Sequence record: PZ496580.1
DNA length: 64,000 nucleotides
Source of the DNA: a phage
Reading direction: 5' to 3' (one strand)
Position numbers and translations under genes: made by a program. Within the stretch, counting starts at the first letter, position 1, and every line of letters begins with the position of its first letter. The notes beneath the pieces are model-generated. The model saw only the letters and a list, made by a program, of their open reading frames with translations. It was not told the DNA's origin and searched no databases. Positions 4,492-20,568 of this stretch are shown piece after piece.

Positions 4492-6057
4492 ATGTTTAGT
4501 AGATTAAAAATGCTTGCGCGTTGGGCTGATTTTGACAACGACAAATACGAAGAACAAATTAAAGATAAAGCAGAGTCTATCGCCGCACCTAAAAACAATG
4601 ATGGTGCTACGGAAGTAGAAATTAATGATAACTCCCCGGCTAGCGCATGGAACTCTCTTACCCAGCAATTTTACAGCACCGACCAGAAAATCAGTACAAC
4701 TAAGCAATTAGTTAACACATATCGCGGTTTGATGAATAACCATGAAGTCGAAAACGCTGTACAAAATATCGTTAACGATGCGATTGTATTTGAAGAAGGT
4801 CATGACGTTGTTTCATTAAATCTTGAGGCGACTGGTTTTAGTGAATCTGTAAAAGAGCGCATTCATGAAGAATTTAAAGATCTTTTAAACACTATCCAGT
4901 TTGATAAGCGCGGTCAGGATATGTTCCGTCGCTGGTATGTCGATTCGCGTATTTTCTTCCATAAGATCATCGGTAAAAATCCAAAAGATGGTATCGTAGA
5001 ATTACGCCAGCTTGATCCACGAAATCTTGAATATGTTCGCGAGATCATTACAGAAGACACGCCAGAAGGTAAAATTTATAAAGCAACGAAAGAATATTTC
5101 ATTTACACTGTAGGCAATAGCTCTTATTGCGCAGGTGGTCAAGTATTCTCTCCTAATAGTCGCGTTAAAATCCCGCGTAGTGCTATTACATACGCTCACA
5201 GCGGCTTGATGGATTGCGATGATAAATATATCATTGGTTATTTGCATCGGGCTGTTAAGCCAGCAAACCAGCTTAAATTGTTGGAAGACGCAATGGTCGT
5301 TTATCGTATCACGCGTGCACCGGAACGCCGAGTGTTCTTTATTGATACCGGAAACATGAACAACCGCAAGGCTGCACAGCACATGAACTCAGTGGCACAG
5401 TCTTTTAAAAACCGCGTTGTTTATGATGCATCGACTGGTAAACTTAAAAACCAGCAAGCAAATCTATCAATGACAGAGGACTACTGGTTACAGCGTCGAG
5501 ATGGTAAAGCAATCACCGATGTTACTACTTTACCGGGTGCCTCCGGTATGAGTGATATCGATGATATTCGCTACTTTAACCGTAAATTGTATGAAGCGTT
5601 GCGTGTACCATTGTCACGTAGCAATCTCTCCGATGCTAATATGGTGATCGGTGGTGACGGTTCAGAAATTACTCGCGATGAGTTGGAATTTTCGAAATTC
5701 ATTAGAACTCTGCAATCACAATTTTCGGAAGTATTGCGCGATCCGCTTAAATATAATCTGATTCTCAAAAATGTAATTACGGAAGACGATTGGGATCGTG
5801 AAATAAATAATATCAAGGTGGTTTTCCATCGGGACTCTTATTATACAGAAGTTAAAGACGCGGAAATTTTAGAACGTCGAATCGGTCTAATCGAACGTAT
5901 CGCCCCTTACATTGGTAAGTATTTCTCCAACCAGACAGTGATGCGTGACATTCTGAAATATACCGATGACCAGATGGACACCGAGAAGAAACAGATCGAA
6001 GAAGAAGCGAACGATCCGCGCTTTAAACAAACTCCCGATGAAATAGAGGATTTTTAA
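4492..6057 (+). CDS. 20: Portal vertex protein (gp20)
   Basis: 521 aa; size and position as T4 gp20. Confidence 0.9.
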   Translation: MFSRLKMLARWADFDNDKYEEQIKDKAESIAAPKNNDGATEVEINDNSPASAWNSLTQQFYSTDQKISTTKQLVNTYRGLMNNHEVENAVQNIVNDAIVFEEGHDVVSLNLEATGFSESVKERIHEEFKDLLNTIQFDKRGQDMFRRWYVDSRIFFHKIIGKNPKDGIVELRQLDPRNLEYVREIITEDTPEGKIYKATKEYFIYTVGNSSYCAGGQVFSPNSRVKIPRSAITYAHSGLMDCDDKYIIGYLHRAVKPANQLKLLEDAMVVYRITRAPERRVFFIDTGNMNNRKAAQHMNSVAQSFKNRVVYDASTGKLKNQQANLSMTEDYWLQRRDGKAITDVTTLPGASGMSDIDDIRYFNRKLYEALRVPLSRSNLSDANMVIGGDGSEITRDELEFSKFIRTLQSQFSEVLRDPLKYNLILKNVITEDDWDREINNIKVVFHRDSYYTEVKDAEILERRIGLIERIAPYIGKYFSNQTVMRDILKYTDDQMDTEKKQIEEEANDPRFKQTPDEIEDF

Positions 6058-6276
6058 ATGAAACAATTTATCGAAGCAATTAAAACTCGCGATCTAACGC
6101 TGATCGAAAAAGAATTTGATAAGATCATGGAGGCTAAAAAAGCCCAGATCATCGAATCCCAGCGTGTCGAAATCGCATCCAGTGTCATGATCGAAGGTGA
6201 AGAAGAAAAAGACCGCGATGATGAGGACGACGAAGATCACAAAGACGATAAAAAAGACAAAGAAGACGACGAATAA
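6058..6276 (+). CDS. 67: Prohead core protein (gp67-like), acidic C-terminus
   Basis: 72 aa; position between 20 and 68; highly acidic tail. Confidence 0.6.
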   Translation: MKQFIEAIKTRDLTLIEKEFDKIMEAKKAQIIESQRVEIASSVMIEGEEEKDRDDEDDEDHKDDKKDKEDDE

Positions 6277-6707: not shown

Positions 6708-7403
6708 ATGGAAAAGAACGAATTACTGATCGAACAATGGGGCGTTCCTTGTGCTCGCGGTAGTTCGTCATTGCTTGAATCATTTGATGATAAGGCTACA
6801 GGAAATCTCTATATTCAAGGGATTTTCCTGCAAGCCGAAACGGTAAACCGTAATAAACGCTGGTATCCTCGCAGTGTTCTAGAAAATGCGGTTACTAAAT
6901 ACATACATGAACAAGTTGAGACACATCAAGCTCTAGGCGAACTTAATCACCCAGCAAGAGCAATGCCAGATCCATCTAATGCTTGCATCATAATTGAAAA
7001 ATTGTGGTGGGAAGGTAATAACGTGATGGGTAAAGCCCGTGTTATTGAAGGGGATAAAGGCGCAGGTGATAAACTTGCTGCACTGATTCGCGCTGGCTGG
7101 ATTCCTGGCGTTTCATCCCGTGGGTTGGGTCGTTTAAAAGACTCTGGTCGCGGATACAATATTGTACAGGAAGGTTTTGTGTTGACGGTTGGTGTTGATG
7201 TTGTATGGGGTCCGAGCGCACCAGATGCGTGGGTAACTCCGGTGGTTGAGTCAACGGATAGCGATTCTAGCGCGTCAGACGCACCAGAAAGCGATAAAAC
7301 CGAAAAAGTGACTAACACTACAGCCTCACAACAAAACATCGTAGAATCGAATAATAGCGCGTTTATGGCGCTCGCAGAAGCGTTATCTAAACGCTATAAA
7401 TAA
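6708..7403 (+). CDS. 21: Prohead core scaffold protein and protease (gp21)
   Basis: 231 aa; strong similarity to T4 gp21 (LLIEQWG..GIFLQAE.VNRNKR.YP..ALGELNHP..). Confidence 0.85.
   Translation: MEKNELLIEQWGVPCARGSSSLLESFDDKATGNLYIQGIFLQAETVNRNKRWYPRSVLENAVTKYIHEQVETHQALGELNHPARAMPDPSNACIIIEKLWWEGNNVMGKARVIEGDKGAGDKLAALIRAGWIPGVSSRGLGRLKDSGRGYNIVQEGFVLTVGVDVVWGPSAPDAWVTPVVESTDSDSSASDAPESDKTEKVTNTTASQQNIVESNNSAFMALAEALSKRYK
7395..7402 (+). promoter_or_regulatory. Late promoter TATAAATA upstream of gene 22
   Basis: Exact TATAAATA about 33 nt upstream of ATG. Confidence 0.45.
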
Positions 7404-7434
7404 TAACGTCGTTATCAACAAGAAGGTTATAACC

Positions 7435-8229
7435 ATGCTTAAAGAAATGCTGCTCGAAGAAGCAAAACAGATCACCGTAGACGTTGCTCTCGATGACCTG
7501 TTTGAATCCGTCGAACTGTCGCCGGAAGTAAAAGAAAATTTTGGTACTATCTACGCTCAAGCGGTAAAAGCTAATGCTGTTGCACTGGCAGAAAGCCACA
7601 TTGAAAAAATCGCCGCTAAAGCCGATGAACTGGTAGAATCAAAGGTCGAAGAAGCACGCACCGAGATCGAAACCAAACTGTACGAAGATGCGGATAAATT
7701 CCTGAATCACTTAGGAGCTAAATGGCTGGCAGAAAATAAAGAAGCCGTTACCCGTAATATTAAAGCGGATCTGTGCGAATCCCTGATTGGTTCTCTGAAA
7801 GATGTTTTCGTTACTCACAATGTTGTAGTACCGGAAGAATCTGTAGACGTTGTTGCTGAACTTGACGAAGCACTCAAAGAAGAAAAAGAAAAAACATCTG
7901 AACTCTTTGATGCCAAACTGCAACTTGAAAGCGAAATTCGTGGCATGAAGCGCGAACAAGCGATCAATGAAAGCACTCGTGATCTTTCCGATACTCAGAA
8001 AGAAAAAGTAACCGCGCTGATTGAAGGTCTGGAATATAGCGAAACTTTCGATAAGAAATTAACTGCAATTGTCGAAATGGTTGCTAAGAAAGAAGACAAA
8101 CCAGCGAAGATTGAAGAATCACTAAATACTGATGCCGACAAGCTGAATGTTATTGCAGAAGCTGTCGAAGAATCAGAGAAAAAGGCAACTGTAGATTCCG
8201 GCGTATCCCGCTACCTGAATTTCATCTAA
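7435..8229 (+). CDS. 22: Prohead core scaffold protein (gp22)
   Basis: 264 aa; acidic coiled-coil-like composition; synteny. Confidence 0.8.
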   Translation: MLKEMLLEEAKQITVDVALDDLFESVELSPEVKENFGTIYAQAVKANAVALAESHIEKIAAKADELVESKVEEARTEIETKLYEDADKFLNHLGAKWLAENKEAVTRNIKADLCESLIGSLKDVFVTHNVVVPEESVDVVAELDEALKEEKEKTSELFDAKLQLESEIRGMKREQAINESTRDLSDTQKEKVTALIEGLEYSETFDKKLTAIVEMVAKKEDKPAKIEESLNTDADKLNVIAEAVEESEKKATVDSGVSRYLNFI

Positions 8230-8247
8230 TGTAATTCAAATCTACTT

Positions 8248-8255
8248 TATAAATA
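8248..8255 (+). promoter_or_regulatory. Late promoter TATAAATA upstream of gene 23
   Basis: Exact TATAAATA about 34 nt upstream of ATG. Confidence 0.55.
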
Positions 8256-8288
8256 CTTTAGGTTAACAACAAACAAGGTTTAAAGAAC

Positions 8289-9875
8289 ATGAAAACTACC
8301 AAAGAACTGATGGAAAAATGGTCCCCGCTGCTGGAGAACGAAAAACTGCCGGAAATCGCAACTGCGTCTAAGCAGAAACTGGTTGCTAAAATTCTGGAAT
8401 CTCAGGAAGCGGATTTTGCTGTAGATCCGATCTATAAGGATGAAAAAGTTGTTGAAGCATTTGGCGGCTTTATCACCGAAGCAGAAGTTGCTGGCGACCA
8501 CGGTTATGATGCATCCAAAATCGCCGCAGGTCAGACTACTGGTGCAATCACCAACGTAGGTCCGGCTGTTATCGGTATGGTTCGCCGTGCTATTCCTAAC
8601 CTGATCGCATTTGATATTTGTGGCGTTCAGCCGATGAGCACCCCGACTAGCCAGATCTTTGCAATCCGTTCTGTGTACGGTGGTGATCCGCTGGCTGAAC
8701 ACGCTAAAGAAGCATTCCATCCGATGTACTCTCCGAATGCGTTCCATAGCTCTCTGGCTGCTAAAGGTGCAACCACTGGTTCCCCTACTGGTACTGCATT
8801 TGGTAAATTAACTCTGCAAACTGCTATTCCTACTGGCGATATTGTATATCACGTATTCGCAGAAACTGGTATTGCATATCTGCAAAACGTAACTGGTGAA
8901 TCTGTAACACCACAGAAAGCAGGTAGCGAATCCGAAGATGAAGTAGTAATGAAGCTGATGGAAGAAGGTAAACTGGTAGAAATCGCTTTCGGTATGGCTA
9001 CCTCTATTGCCGAAATTCAGGAAGGCTTTAACGGTTCTCGTAATAACCCGTGGGCTGAAATGTCAATGCGTATTGACAAACAGGTTGTTGAAGCGAAATC
9101 TCGCCAACTGAAAGCCCGTTATTCTATCGAAGTTGCGCAGGATCTGCGTGCTGTACACGGTATGGATGCTGACGCTGAACTGAATGCTATCCTGGCTAAC
9201 GAAGTTCTGCTGGAAATCAACCGTGAAATCGTTGACGTTATCAACTTTACCGCACAGGTTGGTAAGACTGGCATGACTCAGACCGTTGGTTCTAAAGCTG
9301 GTGTATTTGACCTGCAAGACCCGATCGATACTCGCGGTGCTCGTTGGGCTGGTGAATCCTTCAAATCTCTGATCTACCAGATCGACAAAGAAGCTGCTGA
9401 AATCGCTCGTCAGACTGGTCGCGGTGCTGGTAACTTTGTTATCGCTTCCCGTAACGTTGTAAACATTCTGGCTTCTGCTGATCAGGGTATCAGTGTTGCT
9501 ATGCAGGGTGCTGCAAAAGGTCTGAATACCGACACCACTAAAGCTGTTTTCGCTGGTGTTCTGGCTGGTAAGTACAAAGTATTCATCGACCAGTATGCTC
9601 GTCAAGACTACTTCACCGTAGGTTACAAAGGCGACAACGAAATGGATGCTGGTATCTACTATGCGCCGTATGTTGCTCTGACTCCGCTGCGTGCGACTGA
9701 TCCGCAGTCTTTCCACCCGGTTCTGGGCTTCAAGACTCGCTACGGTATCGGTATTAACCCGTTTGCAGACAGCAAAACCCAGGCACCGTCCGCTCGCATC
9801 ACCTCCGGTATGTTGAGCAAAGACAGCGTAGGTAAAAACGCATACTTCCGCCGTGTATGGGTTAAAGGTTGCTAA
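8289..9875 (+). CDS. 23: Major capsid protein (gp23)
   Basis: 528 aa; size, composition and position match T4 gp23. Confidence 0.95.
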   Translation: MKTTKELMEKWSPLLENEKLPEIATASKQKLVAKILESQEADFAVDPIYKDEKVVEAFGGFITEAEVAGDHGYDASKIAAGQTTGAITNVGPAVIGMVRRAIPNLIAFDICGVQPMSTPTSQIFAIRSVYGGDPLAEHAKEAFHPMYSPNAFHSSLAAKGATTGSPTGTAFGKLTLQTAIPTGDIVYHVFAETGIAYLQNVTGESVTPQKAGSESEDEVVMKLMEEGKLVEIAFGMATSIAEIQEGFNGSRNNPWAEMSMRIDKQVVEAKSRQLKARYSIEVAQDLRAVHGMDADAELNAILANEVLLEINREIVDVINFTAQVGKTGMTQTVGSKAGVFDLQDPIDTRGARWAGESFKSLIYQIDKEAAEIARQTGRGAGNFVIASRNVVNILASADQGISVAMQGAAKGLNTDTTKAVFAGVLAGKYKVFIDQYARQDYFTVGYKGDNEMDAGIYYAPYVALTPLRATDPQSFHPVLGFKTRYGIGINPFADSKTQAPSARITSGMLSKDSVGKNAYFRRVWVKGC

Positions 9876-9945
9876 TTAAACTCCGGTCGGGTGCAATGCC
9901 CGACTTATCATAAACCTTATGACAGTGTAAAGTGTTAATTCCAAA

Positions 9946-9977
9946 GGGAAGACTCGAAAGGGTCTTCCCTTTTTGCG
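9946..9977 (+). terminator. Rho-independent terminator after gene 23
   Basis: GGAAGACTCGAAAGGGTCTTCC hairpin followed by CTTTTTG; a second hairpin lies at about 9885-9905. Confidence 0.6.
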
Positions 9978-9990
9978 TATTATATCCCGT

Positions 9991-9998
9991 TATAAATA
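9991..9998 (+). promoter_or_regulatory. Late promoter TATAAATA upstream of the inserted fibre-like module
   Basis: Exact TATAAATA about 38 nt upstream of the ATG at 10037. Confidence 0.45.
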
Positions 9999-10036
9999 AG
10001 GTTGCAAGCCTATATTCTAAGGGGAGCGAAAATTAG

Positions 10037-10345
10037 ATGCACACACTTATAAAGACCAAAACTCCAGCCGTTTCCGCGTCGGTAAACTGCGTTCATAGTA
10101 CGCACATGACAGTACAGATGACCGTAGAAGGTGCGCGGGAAGGGCAAAAAGTCATTGCGGAAGCCTCGTTAGAAGGTTCTCTAGATGGCAAAGGTTGGTT
10201 CACTATTTCAGAATTGAAAGCTGATGGTAATGAATATGCAACTGATGGTGGAGCGTTTGAAACATTATGGTCATTTATTAGGGCAAAAGTAAAATCTGTT
10301 TCTAATGATTCTACTGTAACCGTGTATCTTGCTAAACGGGGGTAA
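10037..10345 (+). CDS. Hypothetical late protein (102 aa)
   Basis: ORF with SD GGGGAG; first gene of the module inserted between 23 and 24. Confidence 0.5.
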   Translation: MHTLIKTKTPAVSASVNCVHSTHMTVQMTVEGAREGQKVIAEASLEGSLDGKGWFTISELKADGNEYATDGGAFETLWSFIRAKVKSVSNDSTVTVYLAKRG

Positions 10346-10352
10346 TTATTAT

Positions 10353-12083
10353 ATGAAGCTAAATCCACAAGCTATCATTAATGCTGGTTCCGTGAGTGGT
10401 GGTTGTTCTGGTGGTGGTATTCAGATCGGAACTAACGTACCTAGTGGAATTAAAAATACTCACCGTTTCGAAAATGAAGAAGCTAGGGATGCATATTTTA
10501 CCGAACATTTTCCAGAATTGGAGAGACTAAAAACAATTATTGTTTGTGGCGAAAAACTCCAATTATGGACGGGTAAAACAGCACAATCTCCCTACGATAA
10601 ATCAAAATGGGTCGATATGACCTGGGTTATTCAGGGTGAACAGGGTATTCCTGGTGAGAAGGGCGAAAATGGTCGTGGTATTGCTAAAATCGAAGCGAAT
10701 TTGTCCGAGGACGATCGCAACTGGACTCTAGAAGTCACGTACTCAGACGGAACACAGGAGTCTCTTGTATTTCCAGTACCAGAAGTATTAGCTAACGTTG
10801 CGCAGCGTCTATCTGCAATTGAAGTAAAATGGACTACGACGAATCCGATTAATAATCTGGATGTAACCACATCACCCGGACGCTATCCGGTAGGTGATGC
10901 AACCTATGGCAAACCTCCAATGATGGCGAATAAGGGGTCCGCAGATGTATATGTCGTTGATGGTAGCATTCTTCAAGTGGTCCGTTCTATTGATGGTGGT
11001 GTTTACTCTCGTATCCGACACAATGGTGCATGGCGTGAGTGGAACTCTCAAAGCGGGGAAGGAAGTGGTGGCGGTGGTTTAAATGGTGATCAGGAGGCGA
11101 TGTTAACCAGTCTGGGTAAACGTCTACCTGAAATTTCACCCGAAACACTGGACCTAAACACCTTGACTAAACAAGGCCGTTTCTGTTACTTTGAGGGGTC
11201 GGCAAACCGTCCAAATGGAACACAAACACATGGTTCTGTAGATGTTCATGCATGTAAAGATCATGTATTGCAGATCGCAACAAGCATTGATGGCGTAATG
11301 TATCACCGTTCCTATACAAAGAGAACTGATCTATGGACCGAATGGTTGCAGATCAGCGATCACACTGGCGGTGCTACCATTTATGCATTCCCTCGTGTAT
11401 CAAGCGTGTTTACTACGGCACAAAACCTGATAGAAGTAACTAATCCAGGAACAGGGAACGGTTCATTTTATATTCCGTGGAAATATGTTATTCATGATAA
11501 CTATGGATGCACACCACAAATAAAAGAGCCACAAAGACAGGAAGACGCTGATCATTGGTGGGTCGCGCCTAAATCCGGTAGCTATGATATGGAATTGCTT
11601 TTTGATGTTGGATTTATTAAAACACAACAAACAATTCCACCAATTTTCGTAGTAACTGCATGGCACAGGACCAATGAAGGAAATGAGCGATTAGCCGCTC
11701 GTTATAATATCGGTTTTGACGTATCAACAAAAAACCAAAAAACCAAATCTCTAAAATTGAGATTGAATCAAATACCATCCGGTGAGATGTTCCGCTGGCA
11801 AGTTACATTTAGCGGTGGTAGTTGGTCATCAAACGATAACCCAGATGTTTCACTTGTACCATTCCGCACATTGCTGATGGTCGACGAAGTAGAACACGAC
11901 ACAGCAAAACGAGTTGGTGCATTGGCGTATAACACATGGGCTAACTTCCAAGCTAAAAAAGGTCTCGCGGCAACCGTAGGTGAGGATGAACTACAAAAAG
12001 CTCGTCTTAACGCGGTTAAATGGGGTGCTATCATCGAAAGCGTTGAAGCAACTCCACAACCAGGCCAGCAACCAGTGCAATAA
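10353..12083 (+). CDS. Fibre-like protein with collagen-like Gly-X-Y run and repeated knob-like segments
   Basis: ATG at 10353 with SD GGGGG (track ORF begins at an upstream TTG); GEQGIPGEKGENG triplets; two similar segments (SILQVVRSIDGGVYSRIRHNGAWREW and HVLQIATSIDGVMYHRSYTKRTDLWTEW). Confidence 0.55.
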   Translation: MKLNPQAIINAGSVSGGCSGGGIQIGTNVPSGIKNTHRFENEEARDAYFTEHFPELERLKTIIVCGEKLQLWTGKTAQSPYDKSKWVDMTWVIQGEQGIPGEKGENGRGIAKIEANLSEDDRNWTLEVTYSDGTQESLVFPVPEVLANVAQRLSAIEVKWTTTNPINNLDVTTSPGRYPVGDATYGKPPMMANKGSADVYVVDGSILQVVRSIDGGVYSRIRHNGAWREWNSQSGEGSGGGGLNGDQEAMLTSLGKRLPEISPETLDLNTLTKQGRFCYFEGSANRPNGTQTHGSVDVHACKDHVLQIATSIDGVMYHRSYTKRTDLWTEWLQISDHTGGATIYAFPRVSSVFTTAQNLIEVTNPGTGNGSFYIPWKYVIHDNYGCTPQIKEPQRQEDADHWWVAPKSGSYDMELLFDVGFIKTQQTIPPIFVVTAWHRTNEGNERLAARYNIGFDVSTKNQKTKSLKLRLNQIPSGEMFRWQVTFSGGSWSSNDNPDVSLVPFRTLLMVDEVEHDTAKRVGALAYNTWANFQAKKGLAATVGEDELQKARLNAVKWGAIIESVEATPQPGQQPVQ

Positions 12084-12099
12084 TTAGCGGGGGTGATTG

Positions 12100-13032
12100 A
12101 TGACCGATATTAAAGCAAAGATCAGTAAGTTGCAAAATGATTTTGTTCAAGGTGAAATTACACATTTCACTGGTAATGAGTCTAATGCTCTAATGGAAAG
12201 TGATGTTGAAAGAATTTCAAATTCAATCAACACTCAGTTAATAGATCCTGTAATTGATTTTGTTATTGCGTGTGATGACGTAATATCAGAAACAGCAAGT
12301 TCGGCACACCGAACGGCAGAAGTCGCAAAAAATACGGCTGATGTTGCGGATCGAACGGCTGGGCAATCTATGAGCAAAGCAACTGATGCACTGACTAAAG
12401 CGACTACCGCAGAATCGGAGGCAGCACGAGCACACAGCCGATTAGATGGATTGAATATTCCACAATTGCCAAACCTAGACAATCAAACATGGAATTGGCT
12501 ATCACGTTCATTTGATAGTGTCAGTATTAAGCCAGCCGTAGGTGTGACTCTTGTCGATCCTGTAAGCGGAAAACCACACATCACATGGACACCAATTAGA
12601 CAAAACTTTGAAACTGGTCGGTATTACGTGGAAGGGCGTTTTGAGGCTAGATTTAAGGTTATGCTAATGGACTGGACACAATCTTCACAAGGTGGTCATA
12701 TTCATTATCTAGGTGGTGGTCAAAGTCTGGCGTCATTTAATGGACGAGTAGAACTATCTGGTTTGTCTAACGATGTAATGAAACCAACCAACATACAGGT
12801 CAATGCATATACGGCAAAAGATACTCAAGTAATTTTTGGTGCATGTGCTGACGCTGCGATCTCAAATTCTAATGAGATTAAATTAGCGTTCATGGTTGAT
12901 ATTGGGTCGGATCGATTTGATAGATTTACAGATCCGGTTTATGTCGACCTTGTTATGACATTCCAGCGTGACGCTAGCGGTAATTTTGGTTTTGGTACGC
13001 TGTTCCCTGAATTAACCCCAAATTCTCCATAA
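12100..13032 (+). CDS. Fibre-like protein with Ala/Thr/Ser-rich N-terminal repeats
   Basis: ATG at 12100; N-terminal TAEVAKNTADVADRTAGQSMSKATDALTKATTAESEAARA resembles tail-fibre stalk repeats. Confidence 0.5.
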   Translation: MTDIKAKISKLQNDFVQGEITHFTGNESNALMESDVERISNSINTQLIDPVIDFVIACDDVISETASSAHRTAEVAKNTADVADRTAGQSMSKATDALTKATTAESEAARAHSRLDGLNIPQLPNLDNQTWNWLSRSFDSVSIKPAVGVTLVDPVSGKPHITWTPIRQNFETGRYYVEGRFEARFKVMLMDWTQSSQGGHIHYLGGGQSLASFNGRVELSGLSNDVMKPTNIQVNAYTAKDTQVIFGACADAAISNSNEIKLAFMVDIGSDRFDRFTDPVYVDLVMTFQRDASGNFGFGTLFPELTPNSP

Positions 13033-13203
13033 GGAGGAATGCATGAGTAAGAAAGAAAACAGCTATGTTATGACTCGTAAGGAATACGACGAATTGATGT
13101 TAGCATTAGCTTATGCAATTATTCGTTCTGATCATGCAATTAATCTGGTAAACAAAGTTAACCGTAGCGTTGATAATGTTTCTAGGAAGAAGTAATTTTA
13201 TTT

Positions 13204-13234
13204 GGGAATCCTTCGGGATTCCCTTTTCTTTTTG
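13204..13234 (+). terminator. Hairpin GGGAATCCTTCGGGATTCCC plus T-run after the fibre-like module
   Basis: Perfect inverted repeat followed by TTTTCTTTTTG. Confidence 0.55.
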
Positions 13235-13242
13235 TATAAATA
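13235..13242 (+). promoter_or_regulatory. Late promoter TATAAATA upstream of gene 24
   Basis: Exact TATAAATA 38 nt upstream of ATG 13280. Confidence 0.5.
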
Positions 13243-13279: not shown

Positions 13280-14521
13280 ATGACTCATATTTTTACTGAA
13301 CTGTTGCGGGAATCTACTTCCTCAGTAGCTAACCAGACAGCGCGACCGCAACTATTATCATTAACTCGCGCGGTAAACAACCTGATTTTCTCTGATCTGG
13401 TAGCAATCCAGCCAACGGATCAACCAGTGTCTGCATTGTACGGCCTACGCTATCTTAACCGTGATGGTCAGATGACTTTCCGGTCCGCTGCAACCTATGG
13501 TGGCGCGGCTGGCGATCGCACAGAGATCGAAGAGTTTTCAAAAGAAAAATCTTATGACGAAGGCGCATTATTCAAATCAGGCGATGTTGTATACGAAGTT
13601 GTGACCGCTGGTACAGTCGGTGAAGATGCCGCAACTCCAGAAGCTGCGATCTTTAAAGGCGTAATGACGAATAAAATTCGTTTCTATAGCGATTGTGCAT
13701 CGGTAGAATACTTTGAAGATAAAAACACAGAAATTGCGTCTACCTCTATGCAGTTTGACAAGTGGCAAGTTAATGTAGGTTCTCGTAAACTGAAAACCTC
13801 GTTCACCACTGAATTAATGCAGGATCTTGAAGCAAGCCAAATCAACTCGGAAAACTCTGTAATTGATCTTCTGGCTACTGTCGCTTCCGAAGAGATCAAC
13901 AAAGATATTATACAGAAGTTGATCACTGTATCATCTCGCTATAAAATTAAAGGAATCACCCCTGATGGCGTACTTTCTCTAGTTAGCGTTCAGGATGCAC
14001 CGAAACAAGCTCGAGAACTTTACCGCTACGCGTGCGAAATGAGCAATCAAATGTTGCGTACTTCCTCCTTTGCTGGTACATACGTTTTGGCGTCTTCTCG
14101 CGTGGTTGGCCTCCTGCAATCTACCGGATGGATGGAAGAAACCGACAACGCTCTAAGCGAAGGTCGTCTACGTTGCGGTCTGGAAGTGTACGCAGACACG
14201 ACAACACCTTTCGATTATATGCTCGTTGGTTGTAAGCACATGATCGGTGATATGGAGAGTGTAGGTTCTCTGTTCTACTCCCCATATACAGAAGCCGACG
14301 GCGCTGGCGCGTATAAGAGCGTAATTGACCCTAATAGCTTCCAGCATCATGTAGCTATTATGAATCGTTATTCACTCTCTGTCAACCCATACACATCAAA
14401 AGTTGATCAGGAAGCACACCAGATCATCAAGGGTGACGATTGGGGTAAAATGGCTGGACGTTCAGAAATGTCCTACATTTTAGGAATCGAACTGCCACCG
14501 CTTGAGATTGACAACGCTTAA
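13280..14521 (+). CDS. 24: Capsid vertex protein (gp24)
   Basis: 413 aa from ATG 13280 (SD AGGA); similarity to T4 gp24 (ELLRES..RP.L..LTRA...L..SD.VA.QPT.QPV). Confidence 0.85.
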   Translation: MTHIFTELLRESTSSVANQTARPQLLSLTRAVNNLIFSDLVAIQPTDQPVSALYGLRYLNRDGQMTFRSAATYGGAAGDRTEIEEFSKEKSYDEGALFKSGDVVYEVVTAGTVGEDAATPEAAIFKGVMTNKIRFYSDCASVEYFEDKNTEIASTSMQFDKWQVNVGSRKLKTSFTTELMQDLEASQINSENSVIDLLATVASEEINKDIIQKLITVSSRYKIKGITPDGVLSLVSVQDAPKQARELYRYACEMSNQMLRTSSFAGTYVLASSRVVGLLQSTGWMEETDNALSEGRLRCGLEVYADTTTPFDYMLVGCKHMIGDMESVGSLFYSPYTEADGAGAYKSVIDPNSFQHHVAIMNRYSLSVNPYTSKVDQEAHQIIKGDDWGKMAGRSEMSYILGIELPPLEIDNA

Positions 14522-15109
14522 CTAAATATCTAACCAAGACAAGTCAGATCCGCCCAAGATTTTTTCGACGGCGGATCTATTTTCTTGATGATATAAGTTA
14601 AAACATGGTATCCCATGTCTACGGGCAACATAAACAGCAATTCGAGTCCCGCCAGAAACAATCCCATTAACTTCTTTCGCCCAGAATAACACACAATCTA
14701 CAGGATCATCAAGTGTCTCACCTAAGACTTGAGCAACATTTCTAGAAAACAGATTTTGCATGTATAACGGTATAGAACGAGGATTATCATAAACGTGTTC
14801 TAATTCATCCATCGCCAGATCTTTTTGTTCTAAGGTTTGCCATGCAATCACATCATGACCGTTATGCTTGTGGTCATAAAACTTCCAATTTGGAATGAAA
14901 ATTTTTCTATAATCTGGATCGTAATACTTCATGAAAGCATTGTCCATACCGTAAGCCCCTCCAGAATGCGCTACAACGCGATTTTCTGACAATACCCTCC
15001 CAATGGTACTAGCCATTATCAAAATGTCGCTAGGAGCTTTTCTAGAGCCGATTAAAGCACATCTACGAAGTGGTTTTACTCCAAATAGATCTTGTAACTG
15101 GTCAAACAT
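14522..15109 (-). CDS. DprA/Smf-like (SLOG-fold) Rossmann protein
   Basis: 195 aa; IGSRKAP...HSGGAYGMD and VSGGTRIAVYVA motifs resemble the DprA/LOG nucleotide-binding core; SD GGAGG. Confidence 0.45.
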   Translation of the reverse strand: MFDQLQDLFGVKPLRRCALIGSRKAPSDILIMASTIGRVLSENRVVAHSGGAYGMDNAFMKYYDPDYRKIFIPNWKFYDHKHNGHDVIAWQTLEQKDLAMDELEHVYDNPRSIPLYMQNLFSRNVAQVLGETLDDPVDCVLFWAKEVNGIVSGGTRIAVYVARRHGIPCFNLYHQENRSAVEKILGGSDLSWLDI

Positions 15110-16674: not shown

Positions 16675-17901
16675 TTAAGCAGGAGGCGTTTCACGAATCC
16701 GTAGGACACGCTCTAATGTCTCGCGATCCAGCTTGTGGAACTCTTTGGACTGATACATGAAACCATTGCGAGATTCCATGCAAGTGCAATCACTATATTT
16801 TTCTTCCGCTGCCGCGATTGTCTCCAGATCTTTGGCGTACTTGCTGGTTGAATAAACTTCTCGGTGACGCCACTCTAAACCAGCCTCATTGAATTTAACA
16901 ATCTCGTCAAATACCCACCATCCAATATAGATGAATGAAGTTTTGCGCCACGGGATCGGGTGCACGTAACGGAACATTTTATGAAGAGATTCAACAACTT
17001 CCATTGAACACTTTCTGCTTGTACGTGCTGCAAGTTCTACTGTTGCGTCTTCGATCTGTTGATATAGTTTAGCAACACACCAGAATTTGGCTGTATCATC
17101 GTAAGTAGCACGCTCTTTGAACAGATGACCGTCTGGCATGATAGAAAATCCTTCCAGTGCTTCGCCGACCTCACTACCGATCAGAGTCGGTGACGGTTGC
17201 CCTTCGCGCTGCAAATACCAGTTATGTTTGATCGTCAATTTAGGCATACCGCTAGAATCGCCTACAATGTCCTCTGACACAACATAATTAAGTAAGATCT
17301 CCTTACCTAGTGCTACGGTCTTTGATTCCACCACATCCTGATCTACGCTCATTGTAGCCAGCATGATTTTAGTGGATGCGCTATCGGCTGAATCTTCCGA
17401 TTCGCCCCATACTTTGACAGTATACACGCCGTTGTTATCTGCTGTAAATTCTTGGATCGTGATATCCTGTGTCGTGTCTATAACTTCTTCGCCCTTACTC
17501 CAACTATAATGTAGTTCATAATTGTCTGTTGGAGTCTTCCCGCCAGAAAATTTTACTGTTGCATGTAATTCTACGTCTGTTTGTGTTGGTACGTAGAATT
17601 GCGGCGGTTCGGTGATCTTAACGATTAATTCAGCTTCTTCCATACGGAAAACGTCAGATTCTACCGATTCCCCGCTATCGGTATCTTGCACAGTGACTTT
17701 ATAGTTACCCGCATTTTCACTTGTTGCACCTGCTACAGTTAGCGTAGCGGTGTTATTTTCGTGTGGTTTGTTGTCTTTTGTCCATGTATAGGTCAAATTG
17801 CTGGGTAATGGTTCGTCACCTGCTACCGTCGCTGTTAATGTGAAACCATCTCCAGCAAGAAAACATCTTTTGTCAGATTTAATTGATACTGTGAAAGCCA
17901 T
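16675..17901 (-). CDS. hoc: Hoc-like outer capsid protein (3 Ig-like domains)
   Basis: N-terminus MAFTVSIKSDK resembles T4 Hoc MTFTVDITPK; C-terminal YVHPIPWRKTSFIYIGWWVFDEI...ESRNGF matches the T4 Hoc capsid-binding domain; start placed at second ATG with SD. Confidence 0.8.
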   Translation of the reverse strand: MAFTVSIKSDKRCFLAGDGFTLTATVAGDEPLPSNLTYTWTKDNKPHENNTATLTVAGATSENAGNYKVTVQDTDSGESVESDVFRMEEAELIVKITEPPQFYVPTQTDVELHATVKFSGGKTPTDNYELHYSWSKGEEVIDTTQDITIQEFTADNNGVYTVKVWGESEDSADSASTKIMLATMSVDQDVVESKTVALGKEILLNYVVSEDIVGDSSGMPKLTIKHNWYLQREGQPSPTLIGSEVGEALEGFSIMPDGHLFKERATYDDTAKFWCVAKLYQQIEDATVELAARTSRKCSMEVVESLHKMFRYVHPIPWRKTSFIYIGWWVFDEIVKFNEAGLEWRHREVYSTSKYAKDLETIAAAEEKYSDCTCMESRNGFMYQSKEFHKLDRETLERVLRIRETPPA

Positions 17902-17916
17902 ATAAAGCCACTCCAT

Positions 17917-17950: not shown

Positions 17951-20491
17951 TTAAAATAGTTGAGTACCATCAACCAGATAACCATTACGAGATTCCAATA
18001 CATGAGTATTAGAATAGTGATGCAACGAGGCTGCAATAGTCTCGATCTCGTCCGGGTATTTGGTATGTTCAAAGTCTTCTAACCAGTTAAGCCCTTCTCG
18101 GTTGCAACGATCAATTTCATCAAGTACCCAATAGCCTTGATACTGGAACGAAGTACGACGCCACGGAATCGGGTGTACATAGCGTTTTAATTTCGCGGTA
18201 GTAAACACTACACGAACTTTTTCACTATGTTTAACATGTCCTTCGTCGTCAGTAATTTCTGCATAATAGGTTGCTTGATGTGTCTCCTTGCTAATTTGTT
18301 CTTTAGGAATAGTATACACCTTACTATTAGCACCCTCAATAACAGTATCTTTACCGCCCTGAATTTTATGCCACTTCCATTGAACTTCTTTTTCATCATC
18401 AACGTGTTCGGCATGAGCTTCTAAGGTAATATCCTGTTTCTGTCCTTCTTTAGCAACCACATCCACCGGATGTTTCAGAATATTGATATTTGAATGATGA
18501 GTCATTGTCACTAATGCAGGATTAGATTCAATGGTATTCTCACCAGCCGTAATTACCGCTGTGTAGCTGCCTACGTCAGACGGTTTTGCGTGTTCAATAA
18601 TCAATACATCTGAATTTGCACCAGGAATAATCTCACCGTCTTTTTTCCATTGATATGATGGTTTAATACCAATAGATGTTTGTGCGGCAGCGTGTAACAT
18701 AATTTTTTCATTATATTTCACATGCGCATCTTGTGGGTGAGTTGTGACTGCTAGGTCATTTGGAACAACCGTCACATCGTCGGAGATCAATACCCTAACC
18801 GCCTCTGACATTTTAGAAACTCGATGTTCACCGAATCCAGCCGATACACGGCATGTATAAACGCCAGTAGATGTTAATTGTGCATGGTCTTCGCCGTATA
18901 CGTTTCGTTGTTCAATTCCTGCTGGGAAAAGATCCTCACCATCTTTAAACCAACGGTAGCGAACTGGTAAAGCATCGTTAGACGTTGCTTTGATCGTCAG
19001 CGCCCATTGTCCACCTGAACGAACTTTAACGGCTTTAGGTTGTACAGTGATTTCAAGATTAGCCTTTGAGTTGTCTACCGTCACCTGAACTTCGTTAGAT
19101 TCCTTAGAAATACGATGATTCTGTATACCCATAGAAACCTTACATTTATAACGTCCTTCGTCAGATTTGGCGATTGAAGAGAAATGTAATGTTTTAGCAG
19201 TTTTACCCGGTAATAGTTCATCGTCTTTATACCACTGATAATCAAGTTTATAATGCTCGTAGGTAGTTTCTGCCTCACAAATTAAAGTTTGTGAAGAACT
19301 AACGCGAACGTTATTGATTGCTTGTGGTTGTTTCGTGATTCTAATTTCAGGTGCAGCACCAACTAAAAGATCGGCCTCGTCCGAGTCTGCGACTTGATTG
19401 TCGCCATAAGTGACTTTAGCCTTATATTTCGCCTGATTTAATTCTTGCGTAGCAGGTGTAATATGAAGATCTTTATTTGTTGCGCCAACAATTGGTTTAA
19501 ATTCCGGTTCCCCATTTTTCTTGATGTACCATTGAACTTTTACCGGTTCGTAGTTGGTTGCAAAATCAACACTGAACAAACCTAAAGCACCAGCACCAAC
19601 ATTTATTGTGAGTGGTTGTTTAGTGAAGCGGAAAAACGCTCGTCCTTGTATTGTAACATGACAATCTTTCGAATAGACCGTAGTTTCTGCTTGACGAACT
19701 TCAAGACGCCAAACACCCTCGTCTTTTTTGGTTACATGTGGTATGATCAGTGCGGTCCCGTCTTGTTCCAGCACCATCCTGTCATTATGAATCCACACGT
19801 AAGACAATGGTCGCGTTTTATCGTCTGTCGTGACAGACACTTCAAGATCCAATCGCGTGTCCTCTGCCACTGTAACCGCTGATGGGTAATGTTCCTGAAT
19901 ATGAACTTTAGGAGCATCTTTATTTTGTTCCACTACTACCGGACTGATCCAATAGTGAGAACGTGCATCATCGGTAACAAATACCTTACAAGTATAGTTA
20001 CCAAAATCCTCATAACCAACTCGATCTACATGGACGTTTTTTTCTCTAACTTTATTAGGATCTAACTGAATGTGGTTTTTATACCAAATAGTATCAAATT
20101 GCTTGTTATCTTCGATGAACGGAGTAACAAAAATATCCAATTCTTCGCCTAAACGCTTATAAATGTAGGTCGGAGATTGATCCTGTGGTGCAAGGAAGGT
20201 GCGACGTTCAACAAGAATAGGCTTAATATCAACCGATTCAAGCGGATTATCTTTCAGCTTAACTTTCGCTGTATACGTGCCGAATTGATCTTGAGTCATT
20301 TCAGCAATATACAGAGATTGATCTGGTTCTGCAACCTGATCTGATGGTACGCTTTGACCGTTTAGCTTCCATTCTACGATATAGTCTTTAAAATCTGCGG
20401 TACTTACTACGAGCTTAAGAACAAGTTCATGTCCTACAGACGCGTAGACCGGACCCATAGTTTGATGTAAAATGTTGATTTTATCAGACAT
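17951..20491 (-). CDS. Giant Hoc-like protein with expanded Ig-like array (about 846 aa)
   Basis: Repeated Ig-like segments (recurring W-x-K/R-D/N-G and Y-x-C-x-V patterns) and C-terminal Hoc capsid-binding domain YVHPIPWRRTSFQYQGYWVLDEI...ESRNGY; start at ATG 20491 with SD AGAGGA. Confidence 0.75.
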   Translation of the reverse strand: MSDKINILHQTMGPVYASVGHELVLKLVVSTADFKDYIVEWKLNGQSVPSDQVAEPDQSLYIAEMTQDQFGTYTAKVKLKDNPLESVDIKPILVERRTFLAPQDQSPTYIYKRLGEELDIFVTPFIEDNKQFDTIWYKNHIQLDPNKVREKNVHVDRVGYEDFGNYTCKVFVTDDARSHYWISPVVVEQNKDAPKVHIQEHYPSAVTVAEDTRLDLEVSVTTDDKTRPLSYVWIHNDRMVLEQDGTALIIPHVTKKDEGVWRLEVRQAETTVYSKDCHVTIQGRAFFRFTKQPLTINVGAGALGLFSVDFATNYEPVKVQWYIKKNGEPEFKPIVGATNKDLHITPATQELNQAKYKAKVTYGDNQVADSDEADLLVGAAPEIRITKQPQAINNVRVSSSQTLICEAETTYEHYKLDYQWYKDDELLPGKTAKTLHFSSIAKSDEGRYKCKVSMGIQNHRISKESNEVQVTVDNSKANLEITVQPKAVKVRSGGQWALTIKATSNDALPVRYRWFKDGEDLFPAGIEQRNVYGEDHAQLTSTGVYTCRVSAGFGEHRVSKMSEAVRVLISDDVTVVPNDLAVTTHPQDAHVKYNEKIMLHAAAQTSIGIKPSYQWKKDGEIIPGANSDVLIIEHAKPSDVGSYTAVITAGENTIESNPALVTMTHHSNINILKHPVDVVAKEGQKQDITLEAHAEHVDDEKEVQWKWHKIQGGKDTVIEGANSKVYTIPKEQISKETHQATYYAEITDDEGHVKHSEKVRVVFTTAKLKRYVHPIPWRRTSFQYQGYWVLDEIDRCNREGLNWLEDFEHTKYPDEIETIAASLHHYSNTHVLESRNGYLVDGTQLF

Positions 20492-20568
20492 GTAATATCC
20501 TCTTTTTAATTGCATAACGGAACTACAATTAAAAACATAACAAATATTTCACAACTTTTACGCTCTTA

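Follow-up and report, generated by a model that had tools for sequence, protein, structure and literature searches.

Organization of the cassette between genes 23 and 24

The DNA analyzed here is a stretch of 64,000 nucleotides of a phage genome (sequence record PZ496580.1), referred to in its full length as the window. Between the gene of the major capsid protein, gp23 (8289-9875; Pfam Gp23, E 8e-118), and that of the vertex protein, gp24 (13280-14521; Pfam Gp23, E 1e-87), it carries a set of four open reading frames (ORFs), termed here the cassette: ORF102 (10037-10345), ORF576 (10353-12083), ORF310 (12100-13032) and ORF50 (13043-13195), all on the + strand and named after the number of amino acids (aa) in their products. 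The phage is a Krischvirus, i.e., an RB49-like coliphage of the Straboviridae: megablast with positions 9880-13240 retrieved 59 phage records, all of them from Krischvirus, and the best match, Brandy49 (MZ504876), extended over the full length of the query at 96.6% identity. The explanation that we consider probable, with some reservation, is that the set represents an ancestral, dispensable accessory-fibre cassette of the RB49-like T4 phages.

A preliminary description of this DNA, made from its letters and open reading frames, had counted three ORFs at this site, one fewer than are present, and had assigned 577 aa to the largest product; the gene was recognized correctly, and its product has 576 residues, the additional position being the stop codon. 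The same description had proposed that a late promoter drives the genes as a unit of their own that ends in a strong terminator, and both signals were confirmed. The motif TATAAATA of T4-type late promoters occurs at 9991-9998 (+ strand), 39 nt 5' of the first ATG. It is preceded by an intrinsic terminator on the + strand (9946-9974), in which a hairpin at 9946-9969 (GGGAAGACTC-GAAA-GGGTCTTCCC) is followed by TTTTT; this element forms the upstream boundary of the unit, and the terminator listing also called a terminator-like site at 9955-9975. The downstream boundary is a second + strand intrinsic terminator (13204-13233), consisting of a hairpin at 13204-13223 (GGGAATCC-TTCG-GGATTCCC), with an 8-bp stem containing 5 G-C pairs and a TTCG loop, and a subsequent T-run. 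The next copy of TATAAATA, at 13235-13242, serves gp24.

Taken by itself, TATAAATA is not enriched in the window, with nine matches versus 5.2 expected, and at least nine were obtained in 10 of 100 shuffles. Eight of the nine matches are on the + strand, and four are located ~40 nt upstream of gp22, gp23, the cassette and gp24. The late-promoter reading is based on this placement, which fits T4-type late promoters, and the count is not evidence for it. Counterparts of the upstream hairpin are kept in phage JK32, in two contigs (L005, of 169 kb, and the metagenomic, T4-like L013) and in Aeromonas phage 44RR2.8t, while the downstream terminator is conserved in JK32 and L005. An exact TATAAATA was found at the matching relative position in JK32 and L013, and in these two the unit as a whole is laid out as in the window, with a terminator and the promoter ahead of the genes and a second terminator behind them. 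The signals mark out the cassette as a separate late transcription unit, extending from TATAAATA to the terminator. In addition, a second small hairpin (GTCGGG...CCCGAC), which is also present in JK32, is located directly 3' of the gp23 stop codon (9884-9905), before the main terminator.

Conservation and selection

The cassette genes are annotated as "hypothetical" in all six of the cassette-bearing GenBank records, and no description of the cassette was found in the literature. Pfam, NCBIfam and PHROGs provided no functional name for ORF576, ORF102 or ORF50. With single sequences as queries, the Protein Data Bank (PDB) yielded no hit to ORF576 or ORF102, and what it yielded for ORF310 was noise; the cluster names of remote homologues were uninformative.

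Ratios of nonsynonymous to synonymous substitution rates (dN/dS) were calculated pairwise against G2248, JK32 and the divergent contig L005, wherever dS could be estimated. The values range from 0.10 to 0.17 over all four ORFs (0.10-0.11 for ORF102, 0.12-0.17 for ORF576 and 0.10-0.15 for ORF310), with 0.09-0.14 for the flanking gp23, and indicate that all four ORFs are under purifying selection. Homologues, all of them full length and nearly all from metagenomic assemblies, numbered 21 for ORF576 (45-99% identity) and 17 for ORF310 (51-99% identity). The ATG at 10353 is taken to be the true start of ORF576, since all 19 aligned homologues open with MK(L/I)NP. In L005, a four-gene set at 45-60% identity is located between gp23 and gp24; its ORFs encode 100, 561, 303 and 43 aa, and its counterpart of ORF576 is only 45% identical to that of the window. 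Relative to G2248, dS is 0.80 for ORF576 and 0.92 for ORF310 versus 0.19 for gp23, i.e., about fourfold higher in the fibre genes than in the flank. Such high values are as expected for exchanged adhesin alleles, and exchange of fibre-gene alleles appears likely.

Modular structure of ORF576

ORF576 appears to be a modular fibre protein. An N-terminal domain (N-domain) is followed by a short collagen-like segment and by two knobs of the pyocin type, and the protein ends in what is probably a TNF/C1q-like tip. The N-domain, a putative anchor (10428-10634, + strand; aa ~26-94), bears the motif F..n..RD.YF...LQ.W.G...W and is followed by the collagen-like run GEQGIPGEKGENGRG (10635-10679, + strand; aa 95-109), which comprises five G-X-Y triplets. 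The tandem knobs (10830-11363, + strand; aa ~160-236 and ~262-337) are separated by a Gly-rich linker, and the C-terminal β-sandwich, the probable tip, occupies 11385-11897 on the same strand (aa ~345-515). The Gly-rich tracts (aa 1-30, 23% Gly; aa 231-262, 25% Gly), the collagen-like run and the two repeated knob-like segments had all been noticed in the preliminary description; the knobs constitute a true internal repeat, in which aa ~167-243 align with aa ~267-343 at 29% identity (BLASTP E 2e-11).

The N-terminal 95 residues are the best conserved part of the protein, with a mean pairwise identity of 0.71-0.81 versus 0.52-0.63 elsewhere. This is the usual pattern of fibres that dock by their N-terminus and bind by their distal parts. 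When 1.84 billion representative proteins were searched with a profile, only four of the 288 hits were full-length relatives, and the other listed hits matched domain by domain. The N-domain (aa ~30-108 in this search) heads many otherwise different proteins of 300-2000 aa, is usually followed directly by collagen repeats in the proteins examined, and is also found at the head of fibre-like proteins of 391-954 aa with other distal parts. Its homologues often carry long Pfam Collagen regions at the place where ORF576 has five triplets; ORF576 itself is below the Pfam Collagen (PF01391) threshold, which such N-domain proteins do attain, and gave no Pfam hit. Homologues of the knob region are long proteins assigned to PHROG tail-fibre families, and those of the C-terminal domain are ~300-aa proteins of T7-like phages. 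Streptococcus phage C1 gp12 begins with a sequence reminiscent of the N-domain motif, but this likeness was not significant (E 2.1). An IMG/VR search with a narrow N-domain alignment returned three loci only, of which one was uninformative. Some ORF576 homologues (P0003, P0004 and P0007) carry a precomputed assignment to Pfam PF27308.

The AlphaFold2 model of ORF576, calculated as a monomer, has a mean predicted local distance difference test score (pLDDT) of 55.7 and a predicted template modelling score of 0.41. It contains three moderately confident β-domains (aa ~160-235, ~262-335 and ~345-515), the last of which is the most confident region, with means over 10-residue blocks of up to 89. 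In Foldseek searches of the PDB, the model matched two baseplate/fibre chains of phi812, a Staphylococcus phage (E 1e-9 and 2e-9), and the C-terminal region of the R1 pyocin fibre (6cl5_A; E 1.8e-8), in both cases at a model pLDDT of 55.7 and a global template modelling (TM) score of 0.12-0.18, as well as the receptor-binding domain of TM4 gp23. Many jelly rolls of the TNF/C1q family were matched as well, among them CD40L, TL1A, the C1q domain of Caprin-2, TNF and RANKL (probability 1.00; TM score normalized to the target 0.5-0.65; ~170-180 columns). The latter were reported without alignment coordinates, and by their size they would belong to the C-terminal domain. Structure prediction, which had been suggested as a check for knob folds, thus gave knob matches with a model of low pLDDT, whereas no significant sequence homology to known knobs was detected: the profile matched R2 pyocin in the PDB at E 0.84-1.2, and Pfam gave no hit.

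ORF310, a probable second fibre protein

ORF310 also showed the composition of a fibre protein, with an N-terminal docking segment, an Lpp-like coiled coil and a β-sandwich head of the receptor-binding type. The conserved N-terminal segment, with a putative docking role, lies at 12142-12285 (+ strand; aa 15-62, mean pairwise identity 0.80). The alanine-zipper coiled coil (12196-12450, + strand; aa 33-117) would be ~12 nm long if fully helical, and the C-terminal head (12502-12999, + strand) comprises aa ~135-300. In the AlphaFold2 monomer model (mean pLDDT 75.5), aa 33-117 form one long helix and aa 135-300 a β-sandwich with pLDDT values mostly of 85-93. The Ala/Thr/Ser-rich N-terminal stretch of the preliminary description is present, and consists of a continuous α-helix resembling the Lpp zipper instead of the tail-fibre-stalk repeat assumed there; the C-terminal domain, which had been called Gly-rich, is not markedly so (9% Gly).

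The zipper scores below family thresholds, both for Pfam Alanine_zipper (PF11839; E 2e-4, 21.9 bits versus a cutoff of 23.1) and for NCBIfam Ala_zip_lipo (NF040598; E 2.4e-4, 21.5 bits versus a cutoff of 43). The profile of the ORF310 family matches the trimeric Lpp-56 (1jcc; E 0.004), and some of the matches in BFVD bear the names tail fibre protein and RBP sandwich domain. One homologue is labelled "major outer membrane lipoprotein", a misnomer, because ORF310 has no signal peptide: its N-terminus (MTDIKAKISKLQNDF) has neither a hydrophobic leader nor a Cys and hence no lipobox. A lipoprotein reading of the cassette was likewise rejected, given the missing leader of ORF310 and the lack of conservation of Cys18 in ORF576.

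JK32 (MK962753) contains a third fibre gene (7183-9027) between its counterparts of ORF310 and ORF50. The 614-aa product, annotated as "tropomyosin-like", shares with ORF310 only aa ~10-114 (E 8e-25), an area that contains aa 15-62, and continues with a ~450-residue coiled coil and a different C-terminus. A shared N-terminus combined with a different shaft and tip suggests that these proteins dock at one and the same site and that their distal parts can be exchanged. Taken together, the pyocin-type knobs, the probable TNF-like tip, the trimeric-type coiled coil and the receptor-binding-type head provide fold-level support for the view, already put forward in the preliminary description, that the two large products are fibres or adhesins.

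ORF102 and ORF50

ORF102, the constant first gene of the cassette, belongs to the phrog_16217 family (PHROG E 2.4e-21). A word-indexed homologue search returned five close relatives only. Homologues of ~35% identity are encoded next to gp23, on its 3' side, in Aeromonas phages 44RR2.8t, 31 and their relatives, a position that was checked in 44RR2.8t, and one is encoded by Stenotrophomonas phage IME13. In L005 and L013, too, the ORF102 homologue is the first gene after gp23. Two of 11 family members gave a faint F5/8-type-C match (best E 0.002), and the family profile weakly matches a CBM32 module. In Pseudomonas phage Orisa03 (5974-7758) the ORF102 domain forms the N-terminus of a GDSL-esterase protein. 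In three viral contigs of ~43 kb (L022-L024), a free homologue of ~96 aa (131 aa in L024 according to an ORF finder limited to ATG starts) is followed by a conserved 133-aa ORF and lies beside T7-gp17-like tail-fibre genes. Judged from these relationships, ORF102 is most likely a small β-sandwich adaptor or glycan-binding subunit that travels with fibres.

ORF50 encodes a small helical protein of phrog_16600 (PHROG E 8e-38). It is identical at 49 of 50 positions, with no indels, in RB49, GEC-3S, JSE and G37-3, and is the sole cassette gene that is intact in relatives lacking the fibres; a 43-aa homologue is encoded in L005. As it outlives the deleted fibre genes, ORF50 probably acts independently of them.

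The retention of ORF50 and the CBM32/discoidin-like signal and esterase fusion of ORF102 would also suit an explanation in which the products are late-expressed but do not enter the virion, e.g., lectin-like factors that are released at lysis and bind debris or host glycans, or intracellular factors. We regard this explanation as very unlikely. The proteins show no evident signal peptide or lipobox: the Cys at position 18 of ORF576 varies among homologues, and ORF310 begins directly with its helix. Moreover, a conserved N-terminus, variable tips and collagen or coiled-coil shafts make up the architecture of virion fibres, and the genes are located within blocks of structural genes in all of the phage types recovered.

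Loss of the cassette from the RB49 lineage

At least 80% of the DNA query was covered in only five records (Brandy, SSG23, SFHK24, UPWr_E1 and G2248); JK32 also bears the cassette, plus one extra gene. In the remaining matching records the 23-24 interval is ~680 bp long and contains short remnants only. The fibre genes are deleted in all five relatives examined (RB49, GEC-3S, JSE, G37-3 and Whisky49). In GEC-3S, RB49 and G37-3 the interval consists of pieces corresponding to window positions 9801-10045, 11531-11689 and 12871 onwards, and both deletion junctions (10045 joined to 11531, and 11689 to 12871) are identical among the three phages. In JSE and Whisky49 the left junction is further in (about 10045 joined to 11622). 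Short microhomologies occur at the junctions, e.g., AAATGAGCG versus AAATTAGCG.

In comparisons of the short-interval phages with the window, the remnants (11531-11689 and 12871-13032) show 89-96% identity with 1-5 gap openings, while the 3' end of gp23, ORF50 and the 5' end of gp24 show 97-99% identity with no gap openings. On the basis of this difference, the small "hypothetical proteins" that annotators placed in the 23-24 interval of GEC-3S (2666-2948), RB49, JSE, G37-3 and Whisky49 can be identified by sequence as decaying fragments of ORF576 and ORF310, and their annotation is corrected here to gene remnants. Among them is the 45-aa phrog_20809 family, which matches ORF310 aa 264-303.

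The shared deletion junctions, the remnants and the 45%-identical relative with all four genes in place indicate that the common ancestor already had the cassette and that a single lineage, which now dominates culture collections, lost it stepwise. The sequences likewise indicate that the cassette is dispensable. Recurrent loss in the laboratory was rejected, as independent isolates share junctions and thus derive from one ancestral lineage. A homing-endonuclease or mobile insert was also rejected: no such domains were detected, and the remnants prove loss, not gain.

The preliminary description had regarded the set as inserted by horizontal acquisition and had proposed a comparison of the 23-24 interval in related genomes; this comparison contradicts the proposal for this genus and points to an ancestral cassette that was lost. 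If foreign fibre genes had recently been inserted into the T4-like head operon by horizontal transfer, this would accord with the corresponding interval of T4 itself, in which no structural gene is known, only segD, with the domains common to unrelated phages and with the elevated dS of the fibre genes, a sign of allele exchange. Against such an insertion, the relatives that lack the genes hold internal remnants with indels, joined identically in GEC-3S, RB49 and G37-3, the cassette occupies the corresponding place in L005 at 45% protein identity, and its GC content is unremarkable (0.41-0.47). Of the explanations considered, recent insertion is the least probable; exchange of distal parts is likely.

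The same site in other T4-like lineages

The 23-24 interval of 44RR2.8t (4995-6159), a Biquartavirus, contains ORF162w, an ORF102 homologue (35% identity), followed by the 288-aa ORF163w; both are annotated as hypothetical, and no virion proteomics for either was found in the literature. ORF163w combines Phage_fiber_rpt with an Sf6-type needle knob (PF16532, E 3.8e-27), a family with no Pfam hit in ORF576 or ORF310. The N-termini of ORF163w (MILNPKAVLN) and ORF576 (MKLNPQAIIN) are alike, with no detectable homology beyond the first ~10 residues. Three proteins are encoded in the interval of L013: a homologue of ORF102, a collagen fibre of 675 aa that bears the N-domain of ORF576, and a protein of 828 aa. 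Similarly, contig L016 carries an ORF102 homologue followed by an 869-aa N-domain protein, and in L018 an N-domain fibre protein adjoins hoc-like and inh genes. From these gene orders, the interval looks like a conserved slot for accessory fibres and not an empty spacer.

The kinds of parts in the cassette, i.e., knobs, jelly-roll tips and collagen or coiled-coil shafts, are already known. The apparent novelty lies in their combination into this unit, in the constant presence of ORF102 as a partner, in the fact that several T4-like lineages have the unit at one fixed position, between the genes for capsid and vertex, and in its loss from the model phages.

Proposed function and attachment site

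In the explanation preferred here, ORF576 and ORF310 would assemble as trimers, as suggested by the kinds of folds that they matched, and would be built into the virion, where ORF102 may act as the small β-sandwich adaptor or glycan-binding subunit described above. The fibres would provide extra, probably reversible, binding to a glycan or protein of the host surface. This additional binding could help adsorption to natural hosts that bear O antigen and would be unneeded on laboratory strains.

Regarding the site of attachment, the gene order makes the capsid (its gp24 vertices or its three-fold sites) a better candidate than the neck or baseplate, since the genes are located among head genes in every T4-like context recovered and since vertex fibres of other viruses offer an analogy. 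In PRD1 P5 and the adenovirus fibre, which project from vertices, an N-terminal anchor is joined by a shaft to a TNF-like knob, and gp8.5 of phi29 forms head fibres. The cassette has the same design in common with such vertex and capsid fibres: the N-terminus is conserved, the shaft is short and either collagen-like or a coiled coil, the tip is a probable jelly roll, and the whole is dispensable. Like their genes, it adjoins capsid and vertex genes; unlike fibres of the PRD1 P5 type, ORF576 has pyocin-type knobs between the shaft and the tip. Capsid fibres, located at vertices, are also found in Agrobacterium phage 7-7-1 (PMC12796354). The cassette can further be likened to T4 Hoc and T4 fibritin (wac), non-essential late appendages of the virion that are thought to aid adhesion. 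ORF310 has the plan of fibritin, i.e., an anchor, a coiled coil and a C-terminal domain, with a coiled coil of the Lpp alanine-zipper type; in contrast to Hoc, the cassette proteins contain no immunoglobulin (Ig) domains, and they give no Pfam match to Hoc or fibritin.

Alternatively, the same proteins could be accessory fibres of the tail, baseplate or neck, of a side or whisker-like type, which complement gp37/gp38 and gp12. The closest fold matches are indeed tail fibres and baseplate receptor-binding proteins, the knob homologues fall into PHROG tail-fibre families, the C-terminal domain of ORF576 has a homologue in a T7-like phage, ORF102 homologues lie beside T7-gp17-like tail-fibre genes in the ~43-kb contigs, and the layout of ORF310 parallels that of fibritin. 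The resemblance to R-type pyocin and myophage fibres, with their knob-knob-foot organization (PDB 6cl5, 6cl6, 6cxb and 6cu2), has its limits: ORF576 shows no significant sequence homology to them (E about 1), and in place of their P2-like N-terminal shaft it has the N-domain and collagen triplets. In addition, the cassette is located among T4-like head genes, outside any tail-fibre locus, and no chaperone for tail-fibre assembly was recognized beside it. All of the T4-like contexts recovered have head genes as neighbours (genes 23 and 24 in the window, JK32, G2248, L005, L013 and 44RR2.8t; hoc and inh in L018), and none of the recovered T4-like cases lies in a tail-fibre or baseplate cluster. 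No paralogues of the cassette anchor domains were found among the other proteins of the window, the baseplate genes lying outside it. A tail-associated set is a serious possibility, albeit an unlikely one. Roughly apportioned, the head receives the largest share of our confidence, short of an even chance, and the tail or neck a smaller one, with the rest left unassigned or given to proteins that are not in the virion.

A bolder form of the capsid proposal is that several T4-like genera possess unrecognised trimeric fibres, attached to the capsid at gp24 vertices or three-fold sites, whose swappable tips set the host range on smooth strains. This class of capsid fibre would be encoded by an ORF102-family subunit together with an N-domain fibre and would make the first contact with surface glycans. 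The proposal is tentative, and we rate it as even more doubtful than the placement on the tail.

Relation to the host range of Brandy49

Among the RB49-like phages tested in a previous study, Brandy49 had the broadest host range (PMC9569957). It infects strains shielded by O antigen, using neither the O antigen nor OmpA, by a mechanism that the authors call elusive (PMC9569957). Brandy49 carries the cassette, while RB49, Cognac49 and Whisky49 carry remnants only. The link between phenotype and cassette is circumstantial, and it makes the cassette a concrete candidate for the unexplained behaviour of this phage. If the capsid-fibre proposal were true, it would explain both the penetration of the O antigen by Brandy49 and its broad host range, and the lack of such fibres in RB49, JSE and Phi1 would be due to deletion in one lineage.

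Several points weigh against the accessory-fibre explanation or its placement on the head. The literature was found to hold no virion proteomics or cryo-electron microscopy of a cassette-bearing phage. Homologues of ORF102 and of the fibre domains adjoin tail-fibre genes in podovirus-like contigs, for which reason synteny does not settle a location on the head. The model of ORF576 is poor (mean pLDDT 55.7, as given above), and only three domains of moderate confidence underlie its fold matches. Furthermore, the Brandy49 link concerns a single phage, whose gp38 is also divergent, and ORF576 is frameshifted in the deposited Brandy49 sequence (MZ504876, 3700-3730; AAA to AA, equivalent to window position 11081). 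This deletion, in the Gly-rich linker, splits ORF576 into coding sequences of 250 and 327 aa and leaves ORF102 and ORF310 intact; it could be a sequencing error or real.

Krischviruses are common candidates for therapy and biocontrol, and current accounts of their host range invoke gp37/gp38 and gp12 only. An additional set of adhesins that the phage can do without, if confirmed, would be an overlooked determinant of host range as well as a handle for engineering. The cassette is found in a minority of isolates and has many metagenomic relatives.

Neighbouring genes

Upstream of gp23, the window encodes gp21 (6708-7403) and gp22 (7435-8229). Two adjacent Ig-rich Hoc-like proteins of 413 aa (16675-17916, - strand) and 854 aa (17951-20515, - strand) are encoded upstream of an ORF of 241 aa that occupies the place of inh, and the phage appears to have two Hoc-type decoration genes in addition to the cassette. 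Just downstream of gp24, a 195-aa ORF (14522-15109, - strand) gave a weak DprA-like match (DNA_processg_A, E 8e-5), which is below the Pfam cutoff.

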